Virus record (IMG/VR): IMGVR_UViG_3300025018_000005
DNA: 64,000 nt
Reading direction: 5' to 3' (one strand)
Source: an uncultured virus (IMG/VR IMGVR_UViG_3300025018_000005)
Lineage: Duplodnaviria > Heunggongvirae > Uroviricota > Caudoviricetes
Of this stretch, positions 49,698 to 59,250 are shown one piece after another. A program made the translations under genes and the position numbers. The number at the start of each line of letters is the position of its first letter. The stretch's first letter is position 1. The notes under the pieces are model-generated. The model ran no database searches. It was given only the letters and a program-made list of their open reading frames with translations, and was not told the origin of the DNA.

Positions 49698-49943
49698 GTG
49701 GAAGTAATCTTATTCAGCGCATCTTGGTGCGCACCATGCAAGCAATTAAAAGAATTCACAAACAACAATGGAATGAGTTTTAGTAAGGTCTACGACATAG
49801 ATACTGATGAAGGCTCTGAAGCAGCACGTAAGTTTGGTGTAAGGGGTGTGCCGACAACGATTGCTATGAAAGATGGCGGTGAATCCAAGCGAGTCATTGG
49901 GTTTAATATTAACGAGATAAACGAAATTTTTAAGGGGATTTGA
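49698..49943 (+). CDS. thioredoxin/glutaredoxin-like protein
   Basis: FSASWCAPCK, VRGVPT; adjacent to the reductase. Confidence 0.88.
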   Translation: MEVILFSASWCAPCKQLKEFTNNNGMSFSKVYDIDTDEGSEAARKFGVRGVPTTIAMKDGGESKRVIGFNINEINEIFKGI

Positions 49944-52900
49944 TGGACTATACAAATGAAATGAGCAAGTACAACTTCATAAAAGGGTATTCAGCTTGGA
50001 ATGACAAAGAAGGCCGCTACGAGACTTGGGATGAGGCTGTTGATCGTGTCATGGATATGCACAAGGAAAAGTATAAAAGCAAAATAAGCTTAAGTGAGCG
50101 TCTTTCAGATTTGATTGATTTTGCAACTCACGCTTACAAGGATAAGTTTTGCTTGGCATCACAGCGAAGTCTTCAATTTGGCGGTGAACCAATGTTGCGT
50201 AAAAATGGAAGGCAATTTAATTGTCTTACCAGTTATGCTGATCGACCATCGTTTTTCCAAGACACGATGTGGTGGTTATTGCAAGGTGGTGGCGTTGGTT
50301 TTAGCGTACAAAAGCATCACGTGAAAAAATTACCGAAAATAAAGCAGCGATCAGGAGAGGCGAAAATCTTCGTTGTCCCCGATACCATCGAAGGATGGTC
50401 TGATGCAATTGGTGTTTTAATGTCATCTTATTTTGAAGGTGGCGGTACTTTCAAGGAGTATTCTGGGTGTAATGTTCTTTTTGATTTCAGTGAGATTCGA
50501 CCAGAGGGATCACTTATTTCTGGCGGGTTTAAAGCTCCTGGCCCTGACGGATTACGTGCTTCGCTAAATAAAATCGAATCGGTGATTGAAAGCGCAATAA
50601 AAGATGGAGATGTATTGCGTCCAATTCATGTGTACGACATTGTAATGCACACATCTGATGCTGTACTTTCAGGCGGGATTCGAAGAAGCGCAAGTATCTC
50701 AATTTGCAGTCCAGATGACGAAGAAATGATCGAAGCTAAAACTGGTGACTGGTTTGTTAAAAACCCTCAGAGAGCAAGATCAAATAATTCAGTGATGCTG
50801 GTAAGGAGTGAGACAGCGAGAGAAACTTATGGAAAGCTTTTTAAATCAATAAAGCAGTTTGGAGAGCCGGGAATTATTTGGAGCGAAAGCACCGAATTTA
50901 TGTTCAATCCGTTAGCCAATTAAATAACGTGCGGATTTAAAACCTTCTCTGATTGACTTGGACGGTGATGACACACTTACAGGGCGCAAGGGTAAAGCCA
51001 GCGTGAGAGACTAAGCGAGAGGGGCATCTTAATAGGTGCGAGCGATAGTCCAGCGCACAGCAAGAAAGTCATTGATACTTGCGGTGTGAGGCGTAGAAAT
51101 ATCATTCATGCCTGTATCTCCTTCTGGAGTCAGTGCATTTCAGGGATGTAACCTTTATTGAGTAGAGGTTGTAAAAGAGGGTGAATTGCTGGGAAGCCTA
51201 AGTGCGTAGCATAAGGTAATCAGCAGCCAAGCTTTAGGGGCGACCCTTTAGAAGGTTCAACGACTAGAAGATACCTACTCTTTATGAGTAGATGAACTTC
51301 GTACTCTCAAGTGAGAGGAAGCACCCTCCACCAAGTAGCGATTGGTGATGATATAGTCTGAGCTGCATGGAAACATGCAGGAGTTTCTTCATAGATCAAC
51401 ATGAGGGTGATTTATGAGAAAAAATAGGAATGGGTATTTTGAGACTGAGACACATAGAGAATGTACTATGTGCGGCTGTATTTTTGAGAAGAGAAAGTTT
51501 GGTTGCAGAATGAAAATATGCAAACCATGCAATTCAAAAAGAGTCAAATCGCAGACTCCTGAAAAAAGAATGTGGCAAAGAGCGAAACAGAGAGCAAGAG
51601 CAAAAGGAATGGAATCTACTCTTGAGGTTGAAGATATATTTTTGCCAAAAGTATGTCCTATATTAGGGATTGAGTTAAAGGTTAATTCTGGAAGGCCAGG
51701 AGCTTATGATAGCTCGTATTCTTTAGATAGAATTGACAACTCAAAAGGGTATACACAAGATAATATCCAAGTAATAAGCCAAATAGCAAATGCTATGAAG
51801 GCAAATGCAAGTGCAGAGCAATTATTGTTATTTGCAAAATACATACTAAAAACCTATGAAGAAACCGGAGAGGATTAACGACCCTCTTTCAACATAACTG
51901 ACCGAATGTAATGGAGGCGTAATGAATAACATGGAAAATGCAAAGAGGGCTGTGAAGGCTGCAACAATTATTGGGACGTTGCAAGCTGGTTACACAGATT
52001 TTGAATATGGAGACAAAGCAACTAAGGAGGCATTTGAGAAAGAAGCATTGCTTGGCGTAAGCATTACTGGGTGGATGGAGAATCCAGATTTTCTTTTCGA
52101 CGACGACAACATGAAATGCTTGGCTGAGTACGCAAAAGAAATTAACGCTGAGGTTGCCGACTTGATTGGCATCAACAAGGCTGCGAGAATAAGTTGCACA
52201 AAACCCGCTGGCAACTCGTCGGTATTGCTTGGCACTGCTTCAGGGATTCACCCTCACCATAGCAAGCGGTACTTCAGAAATATGCAGGCGAACGTTAATG
52301 AGGATGTACCAAAGGAATTTAAGCGAATAAATCCAGATGCTGTTGAAGACTCTGTATGGTCTGCGAGCGGGAAAGATGTTGTAATTTCATTCCCAATCAT
52401 AGCTCCAGAAGGCGCTAAGTTTAAAAAGGATTTAATGGGTGTTAAGCTTTTAGAGTACGTTAAAAAAGCACAGAACTCTTGGGTTGAGCATGGAACTAGA
52501 CCTGAGCTTGGCAATCACCCAATGTTGCGACACAACATCTCAAACACAATTACTGTTGATGATTGGGATGAGGTTGAGGAATATGTTTGGGAGAACAAGG
52601 AGAGCTTTGCTGGCATTAGCTTCCTTCCTCCGAGTGGAGACAAGGATTATGCTCAAGCACCATTTACAGAGGTAAAAACTGAGCAAGAAATAATCGATGA
52701 ATATGGAGTTGCATCGATGTTCGCATCAGGGTTAATTGTTGATGCGCTAAATGCTTATGAAGCTGACCTGTGGAGAGCTTGTGCTGTTGCGGATGGATCA
52801 AACCCAGATGGGAAGGCTGAACTAACTCATGCCACAAGTAAAAATGCTTTGAAGCGCGACTGGGTTCGTAGGTTCGATAAGTTTGCAGATAAGTATTTTG

Positions 52901-53082
52901 ATGGAGATAAGCGCCAAACAACTTACTTGTTAAAGGATGTGCATCTTCTTCATAAATGGGAGAATGTCACTAAAGCATTCAAGGCAATTGATTGGGAAAA
53001 TGCAGACATAAAGCCAAAGTACGTTGATGTTAATACGACAGGTGCGCAAGCTTGTTCTGGTGGAGTTTGCGAAATAGTATAA
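49943..53082 (+). CDS. nrdJ: ribonucleotide reductase, probably monomeric class II (B12-dependent); exons 49943-50912, 51091-51155, 51901-53082; 738 aa spliced
   Basis: FNC, GVGFSV, GGIRRSA, spliced NPCVEI...CNLTE, TKPAG, C-terminal CSGGVC; no beta-subunit gene in the window. Confidence 0.85.
50913..51090 (+). ncRNA. group I intron 1 (178 nt, no ORF)
   Basis: P1 AAUCCGU/GCGGAUU with U.G; P3 50943-49/51017-23; P7 GACUA/UAGUC; P8; P9; terminal G 51090; removal restores T|GC Cys. Confidence 0.9.
51156..51900 (+). ncRNA. group I intron 2 (745 nt, IA2-like)
   Basis: P1 AACCUU/GAGGUU; AAUUGCUGG and AAUCAGCAG; P3 GAGGGUG/CACCCUC; P7; two extra hairpins between P7 and P3'; P9 with GAAA loop; terminal G 51900. 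Confidence 0.93.
51414..51878 (+). CDS. intron-encoded HNH homing endonuclease
   Basis: N-terminal C..C/C..C; CPILG; SLDRIDNSKGY..DN..VIS..AN..K. Confidence 0.88.
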   Translation: MRKNRNGYFETETHRECTMCGCIFEKRKFGCRMKICKPCNSKRVKSQTPEKRMWQRAKQRARAKGMESTLEVEDIFLPKVCPILGIELKVNSGRPGAYDSSYSLDRIDNSKGYTQDNIQVISQIANAMKANASAEQLLLFAKYILKTYEETGED

Positions 53083-58162: not shown

Positions 58163-58432
58163 ATGAGTGGATTAGACTTGGGCCATTACCCAAAAAGCGG
58201 AGATGATGGCGATATAGCTGCAATAAGCTCTGAAAATGATTTGAAAATTGCAATGTATCGCCATAAAATAGATAGTCACAACAGTGAGATAGCAGTAACG
58301 GGTTTTTGTGCGTTTTGCGGCATTGAGATAGATGAAGGAAAGTTCTGCCCTCCAGACCACGAATATAATTATTCGTGTGCAAGTGAATATCAGCGGGAGC
58401 AGGATGCAAAGAAAAGAAACGGATTGGCGTAA
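58163..58432 (+). CDS. TraR/DksA-like zinc-finger protein
   Basis: DDGDIA tip, GFCAFCG.EI, FC...C...Q. Confidence 0.6.
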   Translation: MSGLDLGHYPKSGDDGDIAAISSENDLKIAMYRHKIDSHNSEIAVTGFCAFCGIEIDEGKFCPPDHEYNYSCASEYQREQDAKKRNGLA

Positions 58433-58501
58433 TTGGTGTTAGTGGTAGCATATCTGACTTCCAATCAGATGGGACGAGTTCGATACTCGTATTACGCTCC
58501 A
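58427..58501 (+). tRNA. tRNA-Gly(TCC)
   Basis: Acceptor GCGTAAT/ATTACGC, anticodon arm TCTGA-CTTCCAA-TCAGA, GTTCGA T-loop, encoded CCA. Confidence 0.93.
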
Positions 58502-58516
58502 AAATAGAGGAATGTT

Positions 58517-59173
58517 ATGAATAGGCTACACAGATTTAAAGCAAACCAAAAAGGAAATGACTATGTTGTCGGTGATATTCACGGTAACTACGATACCTTA
58601 ATGGATAAGCTTGATGAAATAGGTTTCGATAAGTCATCAGATCGACTGTTTTCTGTTGGCGATGTTATTGACCGTGGACCTAGGAACGTTGAGTGCTTGT
58701 CATTGCATTACGAGACGTGGTTTTTTGGCGTTCGAGGAAATCACGAGCAGATGATGTTTGATTCTGTTATTGGAAGCGGAGACGTACATACTTGGTTTGC
58801 TAATGGTGGTAGCTGGTTTGCCTTAGAGGACTCTGATGAGCTAAGAGCAACTATTCATGATTTATCAGAGAGATTACCATTAGGTATTGAAATTGATTAC
58901 GGCGATAAACTGATTGGGTTGGTTCATGCTGAGGTTCCATTTAGCAATTGGAGCAAGGCATTCGAGAACGACAGCTTTGCCGTAACAAACACCATCCTGT
59001 GGGCGAGAAGACGAATATCACGAGGATATGGTCATGACGTATCTGATATTGATCAGGTTTATGTAGGACATTCGTTTGTAGACGAGCCCAAAAATATAGG
59101 TAATGTACGATACATTGACACTGGAATGGGTTGGGCCGGAAACGCAAAGCTCACCATTGAGAAAATAAATTAA
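58517..59173 (+). CDS. NinI-like metallophosphoesterase (Ser/Thr phosphatase)
   Basis: GDIHG, GDVIDRG, RGNHE, VHA, GHS, IDTG. Confidence 0.92.
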   Translation: MNRLHRFKANQKGNDYVVGDIHGNYDTLMDKLDEIGFDKSSDRLFSVGDVIDRGPRNVECLSLHYETWFFGVRGNHEQMMFDSVIGSGDVHTWFANGGSWFALEDSDELRATIHDLSERLPLGIEIDYGDKLIGLVHAEVPFSNWSKAFENDSFAVTNTILWARRRISRGYGHDVSDIDQVYVGHSFVDEPKNIGNVRYIDTGMGWAGNAKLTIEKIN

Positions 59174-59250
59174 GGCCTGTAGCTTATTGGTAAAAGCACC
59201 ATACCTGATAAAGTGGAGATCGCTGGTTCGATTCCAGCGCGGGCGTATCA
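59173..59250 (+). tRNA. degenerate tRNA-Ile(GAT)
   Basis: AGGCCTGTAGCT start, CTGATAA loop, GCTGG-TTCGATT-CCAGC T arm; mismatched acceptor and anticodon stems, ends ATCA. Confidence 0.6.

Follow-up and report, generated by a model that had tools for sequence, protein, structure and literature searches.

A 178-nucleotide group I intron splitting the codon for the catalytic cysteine in a phage class II ribonucleotide reductase gene, and its family of small relatives

The group I intron of Azoarcus, which is reportedly about 205 nucleotides (nt) long, is to our knowledge the smallest self-splicing example; no passage stating its size or its smallest status was found in the literature. It belongs to subgroup IC3 and possesses a P2 helix, the tetraloop-receptor contacts L2-P8 and L9-P5 and an insertion site in a tRNA anticodon loop. 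The reductase introns of phages T4 and Twort are of the type with extra P7.1/P7.2 helices. They are group I introns beside conserved catalytic residues of nrdB and nrdD (T4) or nrdE (Twort) and occur in endonuclease-bearing and endonuclease-less forms; the survey of split phage reductase genes from which this is taken lists, in the part available, introns in nrdA, nrdB, nrdD, nrdE and nrdF as well as a 210-nt spacer in Listeria phages, and that part contains no small intron of a class II reductase gene (PMC3653736). Much shorter, degenerate 'group I' introns (56-81 nt) have been reported from fungal rDNA, and according to the available part of their description only P1, P7 and P10 are left in them, the rest of the core being gone (Harris and Rogers 2011, PMC3160393). 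Here we describe a 178-nt intron without an open reading frame (ORF), which splits the catalytic Cys codon of a class II ribonucleotide reductase gene in an uncultured virus of the Caudoviricetes (IMG/VR record IMGVR_UViG_3300025018_000005; the whole stretch of 64,000 nt that was analysed is called the window below). Like the Azoarcus intron it is small and ORF-less, with a compact P3-P9 core in which direct contacts between RNA elements take the place of large peripheral domains, and its J6/7-P7-J7/3 stretch presumably resembles that of Azoarcus. Unlike the Azoarcus intron, it has no P2 with an L2-P8 contact, no L9 tetraloop reaching into P5 and no tRNA site, but an L5-L9 kissing helix, a length of 178 nt and a place in a phage protein-coding gene. 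The T4 and Twort introns differ from it in being larger and in interrupting class I or III genes, whereas the fungal rDNA introns lack the complete P3-P9 core that the small phage family keeps.

We consider it very probable that positions 50913-51090 of the window are a genuine ORF-less group I intron of the reductase pre-mRNA, belonging to a family of 166-191 nt whose spread is driven by siblings with a GIY-YIG endonuclease gene. The reductase gene consists of three exons around a 65-nt micro-exon:

49940..50912, plus strand: reductase exon 1, ending in ...FNP and in the T with which the Cys codon begins (Pfam, PDB match, 72 related loci)
50913..51090, plus strand: ORF-less group I intron, 178 nt (junction fixed by intron-less homologues; homologue in phage CRP-118; family covariation)
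51091..51155, plus strand: micro-exon 2, 65 nt, encoding (C)VEISFMPVSPSGVSAFQGCNL with the NPC-x-E motif and the second conserved Cys
51901..53082, plus strand: reductase exon 3, encoding TECNGG...AATIIGTLQAGYTDF...

The host gene encodes a monomeric class II (B12-dependent) ribonucleotide reductase, as indicated by the Pfam family RNR-II_ins_dom (1.2e-6) and by the match of exon 1 to the Lactobacillus leichmannii ribonucleoside triphosphate reductase (PDB 1L1L, 4.8e-21). Exon 3 gave no match among PDB sequences, and megablast of the entire reductase gene gave none among the phage records. The frame opened at 49940 ends in a stop codon at 50923, right behind ...EFMFNP; translation resumed at 51093 reads VEISFMPVSPSGVSAFQGCNL, and the GC at the start of exon 2 completes the Cys codon. 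The frames of exons 1, 2 and 3 are all open and have retained the conserved catalytic motifs. Since exon 2 comprises 21 codons and has no start codon of its own, a functional reductase requires that both the small intron and a second, conventional intron further downstream are spliced from the RNA.

Intron-less relatives were used to define the boundaries of the small intron. For this, 72 loci related to the reductase of the window were fetched, and the gap between the matches to exon 1 and exon 3 was measured where both exons matched. The gap is 64-110 nt in all but four of the related loci (L001, L002, L051, L045), and L001 and L002 are copies identical to the window. The intron-less relatives read without a break across the junction (...TNPCVEIGMFP..GWQGCNLTE... 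or ...TNPCVEIGMFPKLGNKSGWQGCNLTEINGG...). Only the joining of T50912 at the end of exon 1 to G51091 at the start of exon 2 restores Asn-Pro-Cys-Val-Glu, and the terminal G51090 is the only 3' boundary that restores TGC-GUA-GAA (Cys-Val-Glu). The intervening sequence is exactly 50913-51090; it splits the catalytic Cys codon as T|GC, is preceded by U and ends with G. A preliminary description, made from the letters of this DNA, had proposed a 178-nt group I intron in the catalytic Cys codon at precisely this place, and the intron-less homologues together with the family covariation given below bear it out. Two of the exceptional loci contain insertions of another kind. In L051 (4548-5621) an intein with a LAGLIDADG domain (Pfam LAGLIDADG_3, 3.5e-15) occupies the same catalytic Cys codon, and intron and intein thus both target one codon in related reductase genes. 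L045 (4883-5200) has an in-frame insertion of about 40 codons, which separates the NPC motif from the second conserved Cys and is a coding expansion and not an intron.

The elements of the small intron and of its splice sites are as follows:

50906..50912, plus strand: 5' strand of P1, exon bases AAUCCGU, pairing with GCGGAUU; U50912 is in the U-G wobble at the 5' splice site
50927..50930, plus strand: 5' strand of P10, ACGU; the partner is GCGU, the first four bases of exon 2 (51091-51094)
50931..50937, plus strand: internal guide sequence GCGGAUU, 3' strand of P1 (sequence, covariation)
50943..50949, plus strand: 5' strand of P3, CCUUCUC; partner GAGAGGG (51017-51023)
50957..50983, plus strand: P4 (CUUG 50957-60 with CAGG 50980-83) around P5 (GGUG 50964-67 with CACU 50974-77)
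50968..50972, plus strand: loop bases AUGAC of L5, kissing partner of GUCAU in L9
50984..51004, plus strand: P6/P6a, GCGC..GG with CC..GCGU (covariation)
51007..51013, plus strand: 5' strand of P7, G-A(bulge)-GACUA; partner UAGUCC (51046-51051), with GACUA (51009-13) facing UAGUC (51046-50)
51024..51039, plus strand: P8 hairpin GCAUCU-UAAU-AGGUGC, 6 bp (GCAUCU 51024-29 with AGGUGC 51034-39) and a 4-nt loop
51054..51088, plus strand: P9/P9a hairpin CGCAC..GCAAG with CUUGC..GUGUG, including the L9 loop (covariation)
51068..51072, plus strand: loop bases GUCAU of L9, kissing partner of L5
51090, plus strand: terminal G (omega-G), 3' splice site (sequence)

All helices named in the preliminary description (P1 with the guide, P10, P3, P5, P6a, P7, P8 and a single P9) are present at the positions it gave. 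It had also stated that P2, P5abc, P7.1/7.2 and an ORF are lacking, and this agrees with the sequence: the interval between P1 and P3 consists of UAAAA only, P5abc and P7.1/7.2 are absent, there is one P9 hairpin, and the sole ORF within the 178 nt is a mechanical one of 42 amino acids on the minus strand. The near-minimal group I architecture it suggested is found in the sequence and in the family alike. The P4-P5 motif has a single occurrence in the window, compared to an expectation of 0.

A sensitive BLAST search of 50,697 phage records (2.3 Gb) revealed one real relative, Roseobacter phage CRP-118 (E values 4e-19 and 7e-19). This phage (L073, OR420741.1) is in culture, as is the Roseobacter strain FZCC0023 that it infects (PMC11092137). 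It carries an insert of 172 nt (2491-2662) that splits the same codon as T|GC, only the small intron being present there, and the spliced translation is NPCSEIILRPYQFCNLTE. The inserts of CRP-118 and the window are about 75% identical (74-77%); P3, P5, P6a, P8 and P9 differ in sequence between them and have kept their pairing. In the GenBank record the CRP-118 reductase is given as two coding sequences (CDSs), gp44 and gp45, with nothing annotated in the gap. The downstream exon is open from 2663, and the annotated start of gp45 (2893) lies well downstream of this position. In the part available of the paper describing CRP-118 the word "intron" was not found.

To collect further members, sequence collections were scanned with a pattern derived from the conserved P7 region, which yielded 33 viral-contig loci, 61 metagenome-contig loci and 2 contigs of metagenome-assembled genomes (among 185,579 species genomes). 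After deduplication 53 distinct introns were obtained, with lengths of 166-191 nt and a median of 175 nt. Dropped before these counts were L130 and L142 with false 3' ends, L260 (213 nt) and L218 (223 nt) as doubtful cases, and L271 (164 nt), whose P1 at a contig end is doubtful; the rule for the 3' boundary demanded a G before G[CT]NNNGA[AG]. The preliminary description had implied that the tiny size is unique. This does not hold, as 33 of the 53 are shorter than the 178 nt of the window intron, while four are equal and 16 longer. Every one of the 53 introns is inserted at the first base of the Cys codon within an N-P/A-C-x-E motif. The family spans several reductase lineages, and the downstream peptides include CSEIILRPYQFCNL, CGEQPLPP..CLLG, CAEEPLP.., CAEILLGNKSFCNL and CTEV...CNL. 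None of the records examined annotates an intron for any family member, and no account of a small intron in a class II reductase gene was found in the literature, which is weak evidence given the thin coverage of subscription journals. The small-intron family is large and apparently unannotated. The same small intron type was also seen a few bases off the main site in L230, L276, L283, L287 and L267, with the guide changed to fit; these sites of insertion include the position behind TGCGT and the junction of the Ala and Cys codons.

Covariation was assessed in two alignments made with a covariance model. In 23 sequences, with P3-P7 treated as a pseudoknot and P10 included, 96.1% of the cells are paired, compared to 36-48% when the partners are slid, and both sides have changed in 30 of 53 pairs. 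For 86 matches (68 distinct rows) the values are 97.5% compared to 35-45%, with changes on both sides in 34 of 49 pairs. RNAalifold, applied to a plain MAFFT alignment that was not fitted to the model, returned the same P1, P3, P4, P5, P6, P8 and P9, with 23 of 41 pairs compensatory. All seven pairs of P1 covary (98.5% of cells paired), and its wobble is UG in 64 of the 68 distinct rows. Covarying pairs were likewise counted in P3 (6 of 7, 99.4% of cells paired), P5 (4 of 4), P6 (3 of 6, 100% paired), P8 (5 of 5) and P9 (8 of 10, 91.3% paired in the 68 rows), and in the 23 sequences three of the four P10 pairs have changed on both sides (84.8% paired). P4 is 100% paired and nearly invariant. 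P7 is also 100% paired, and only its terminal pair varies (AU in 59, GC in 9), which is exactly the variation that the scan pattern allowed.

The guide sequence follows the third base of the Pro codon in the exon (CCG with GCGG, CCA with GUGG, CCU with GAGG, CCC with GGGG). Exon AAUCCGU is combined with GCGGAUU in 42 introns and with GCGGAUG in four, AAUGCCU with GGGCAUU in four, and the combinations AAUCCAU/GUGGAUU, AAUCCUU/GAGGAUU and AAUCCCU/GGGGAUU occur in one intron each. Of 45 distinct alleles without the intron in the reductase clade of the window, just 3 have AATCCGT at the site. This pattern fits selection, or co-conversion, of the exon sequence by the intron.

Besides the helices of the core, the loops of P5 and P9 are complementary to each other in every family member, although their sequences differ. 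The L9 loop of 13-16 nt pairs with L5 over 4-8 bp, and 40 distinct pair types occur among the 53 introns, such as AUGAC/GUCAU in the window, GUAGC/GCUAC in CRP-118, and UAACUAU/AUAGUUG or UCGAAGU/ACUUCGA elsewhere. The longest L5-L9 duplex has a mean of 5.9 nt for loops of the same intron and of 4.2 nt for loops of different introns. When the L9 loops were permuted, none of 5000 permutations reached the observed total of 314 (mean 224, standard deviation 6.8). In other group I introns the same two elements are joined by the L9-P5 tetraloop-receptor contact, named in the available part of PMC2813881, whereas the joint in the small family is made by Watson-Crick pairing. No group I intron was found described with a kissing helix between L5 and L9 in the literature, older structural papers lying mostly beyond the search. 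It is likely to be the kissing helix that keeps the two core domains attached to each other in so small an RNA, in which P2 and peripheral domains are missing.

Splicing would proceed by the established group I mechanism. Guanosine would bind to the G-C pair beside the bulged A in P7, which by analogy to Tetrahymena P7 we take to be G51009-C51050, and would attack after U50912. G51090 would then occupy the guanosine site, and P10 with its 4 bp would align exon 2 so that ligation of the exons yields TGC. The predicted core is made up of the P3-P7 pseudoknot together with P4-P5, P6-P6a and P8, with a single P9 and no P2; the P4-P6 domain would be tied to P9 by the L5-L9 Watson-Crick helix, which would replace tetraloop-receptor contacts and peripheral domains. 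That the RNA itself catalyses the reaction, and does so independently of protein, is what we infer.

Several points weigh against the assignment as a functional group I intron. Covariance model RF00028 of Rfam gave no match to the small intron of the window at E ≤ 10 and none at E ≤ 1 to the small introns of 13 other family loci. A single Rfam group I alignment, as stated in the available parts of PMC6125680 and PMC2238919, cannot cover all subgroups, and a few of them dominate the seed; the miss thus reflects what the model can recognise and does not count against the intron. The single-sequence minimum free energy (MFE) of -45 kcal/mol is not unusual compared to shuffled sequences (z = -0.34); the MFE fold does include P3, P4, P5, P6, P8 and P9. 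The register of P4 and P6 is ambiguous, as P4 can be read with 4 bp and a 7-nt J3/4 or, as in the preliminary description, with 6 bp and an A-G mismatch, and the latter reading takes two pairs from P6 and shortens it. Alignments made with a covariance model lean towards the structure of the model, which concerns both the 23-sequence and the 68-row alignment. Hardly any variation is seen in P4 and P7, which form the catalytic heart, and covariation is therefore silent on both, for or against. The family is related by descent, so that the cell counts refer to sequences and overstate the number of independent events, and the uniform terminal G is partly a product of the boundary rule. Finally, no spliced RNA was found among the metatranscriptome contigs, which cover intron 2 only: two of 24 sequencing runs (X23, X24) are RNA, and contigs of these two and of X1 and X11 were compared with the window. 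The RNA contigs match only 51152-51434 and 51657-51807 within intron 2, contain no joints and leave intron 1 and the exon junctions uncovered, so that they speak neither for nor against splicing of intron 1. This confinement to intron 2 could reflect stable excised intron RNA or carry-over of DNA.

The absence of P2, a P4 that is short or mismatched, the single long-range contact found and the unremarkable stability of the single-sequence fold would all suit a group I intron too reduced to fold alone, which splices in vivo only with a protein helper (a host RNA chaperone, a phage factor or an intron-encoded factor). A protein cofactor had been considered in the preliminary description; we regard such dependence as unlikely. 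One specific partner fits poorly with a family that extends across very different phages, habitats and reductase lineages, and 49 of the 53 copies have no second intron or ORF nearby that could supply a maturase; the covarying L5-L9 helix of 4-8 bp is a clamp made of RNA only, yet with regard to the need for a cofactor it is decisive in neither direction. The lack of spliced RNA in the contigs and the annotation of the CRP-118 gene as two CDSs would also be expected from a dead insertion, a reductase pseudogene or gene pieces that work without RNA splicing. Such an origin is very improbable, because the three exons have kept open frames and catalytic motifs, exon 2 with its 21 codons has no start of its own, 53 diverged copies retain every helix by compensatory change, and the guide follows synonymous changes of the exon. 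An element of another class, such as an intein, a group II intron or a translational bypass, is hardly conceivable. An intein does sit at the same Cys codon in L051, but 178 is not divisible by three, the sequence contains stop codons and is far too short for group II, and the helices and splice-site bases are of the group I type.

The second intron of the gene lies 65 nt downstream of the small one:

51156..51900, plus strand: second, conventional group I intron, 745 nt (Rfam RF00028, 92.5 bits; boundaries from the sequence and the alignment of homologues)
51414-51878, plus strand: endonuclease ORF of intron 2, 154 amino acids (PHROG 3322 'endonuclease', 2.8e-34; HNH families to 8e-9)

The P1 of intron 2 is formed by exon bases AACCUU (51150-51155) and GAGGUU (51165-51170), and its ORF had no match in Pfam. 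Both introns of the gene belong to group I; intron 2 differs in its standard core, usual P4, 745 nt and ORF, and its core has no evident sequence relation to the small intron. The 178 nt of the window intron hold no homing ORF, whereas siblings with a GIY-YIG ORF in P8 were found at the same codon in the viral contigs L118, L184 and L161 (Pfam 2e-7 to 2.7e-9, above the curated cut-off). They share with the small intron the codon, the guide and the P3-P7 core and differ by the ORF of more than 118 codons in P8. Over the 5' approximately 120 nt hardly a base differs between L184 and the small intron L080, whose P8 loop is longer at the place where the ORF would sit, and L161 has the P1-loop and P5 type of the window. 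Because of these same-site siblings the small introns are best read as endonuclease-less derivatives in the usual homing-element cycle, spread from GIY-YIG-bearing forms and probably persisting because they still splice; the direction, a loss of the endonuclease gene, is inferred.

According to the preliminary description, the small intron may spread by co-conversion with the neighbouring HNH intron. For this phage passive spread, past or present, together with the endonuclease-bearing intron 2 is possible, though we find it rather doubtful. The endonuclease ORF of intron 2 is only 65 nt away, co-conversion tracts in phage T4 homing extend over hundreds of bases, and in two relatives (L102, L240) a further interruption follows 12 codons downstream of the small intron. 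As a general route co-conversion does not stand. A second interruption within 40 codons was found in three of the 53 introns, including that of the window, whereas 49 stand alone with at least 40 open codons and in one the flank is too short; CRP-118 likewise has the small intron only. The GIY-YIG gene of the same-site siblings offers a more direct route. Moreover, the loci closest to the window's reductase are 56% identical, and among them there is no near intron-minus allele that would show a conversion tract. In L102, L240 and L107 the exon behind the small intron is broken again after a few codons (after ...QFC, or after CG), which suggests further twin-intron arrangements with slightly different second sites.

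At the gathering threshold Rfam recognised in the entire window only intron 2 and two tRNAs. At E ≤ 10 the region 50850-51150 matched only FTHFS and bxd_6, both at chance level, and among 20 loci scanned at E ≤ 1 none of the small introns was matched, the lone RF00028 match (L086) belonging to a different, downstream intron. The P3-J3/4-P4 and P4'-P6 segments of the family (AUUGACUUGGA ... ACAGGGCG) are nearly invariant and unlike the usual consensus as shown by intron 2. A scan with the AUUGACUUGGA...ACAGGGCG motif only found at least 119 viral loci (contigs including L108-L187) in many different genes. The introns of this broader class share these segments with the small family; they differ in their larger 3' domains with several P9 helices and in their many host genes, and some of them carry LAGLIDADG or other ORFs. 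None of seven tested matched Rfam at E ≤ 1. The family and the broader class are thus not seen by Rfam, with the consequence that phage reductase genes carrying the small intron are annotated as split or duplicated, as is the case for gp44 and gp45 of CRP-118; surveys in which this reductase serves as a marker for viruses can be distorted by such annotation.

The structure of the small introns looks distinctive in its full core at 166-191 nt, its lack of P2, its L5-L9 helix and its invisibility to Rfam. We tentatively propose, while leaning slightly to the contrary, that they form an undescribed group I subclass, that they are the smallest natural group I ribozymes with a full P3-P9 core, that they splice without protein and that they mark a blind spot of annotation. 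Such a subclass would be marked by the absence of P2, a length of 166-191 nt, the nearly invariant, unusual P4 and the covarying L5-L9 clamp. If self-splicing, the small introns would be natural full-core group I ribozymes some 15-40 nt below the Azoarcus intron, the usual minimum, and would be attractive for structural work, folding studies and compact engineered splicing or RNA circularisation. They would also join their two core domains in a different way, by a programmable Watson-Crick kissing helix. Endonuclease-bearing siblings, endonuclease-less siblings and an intein at one codon constitute a compact natural system in which the cycle of gain and loss of homing elements can be studied.

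The ORF immediately upstream of the reductase (49698-49943, 81 amino acids) contains a WCAPC motif and is thioredoxin-like on this motif alone; its product may be the reductant of the reductase. The two tRNA genes of the window are located at 58427-58498 (Rfam 54.3 bits) and 59173-59247 (37.7 bits).

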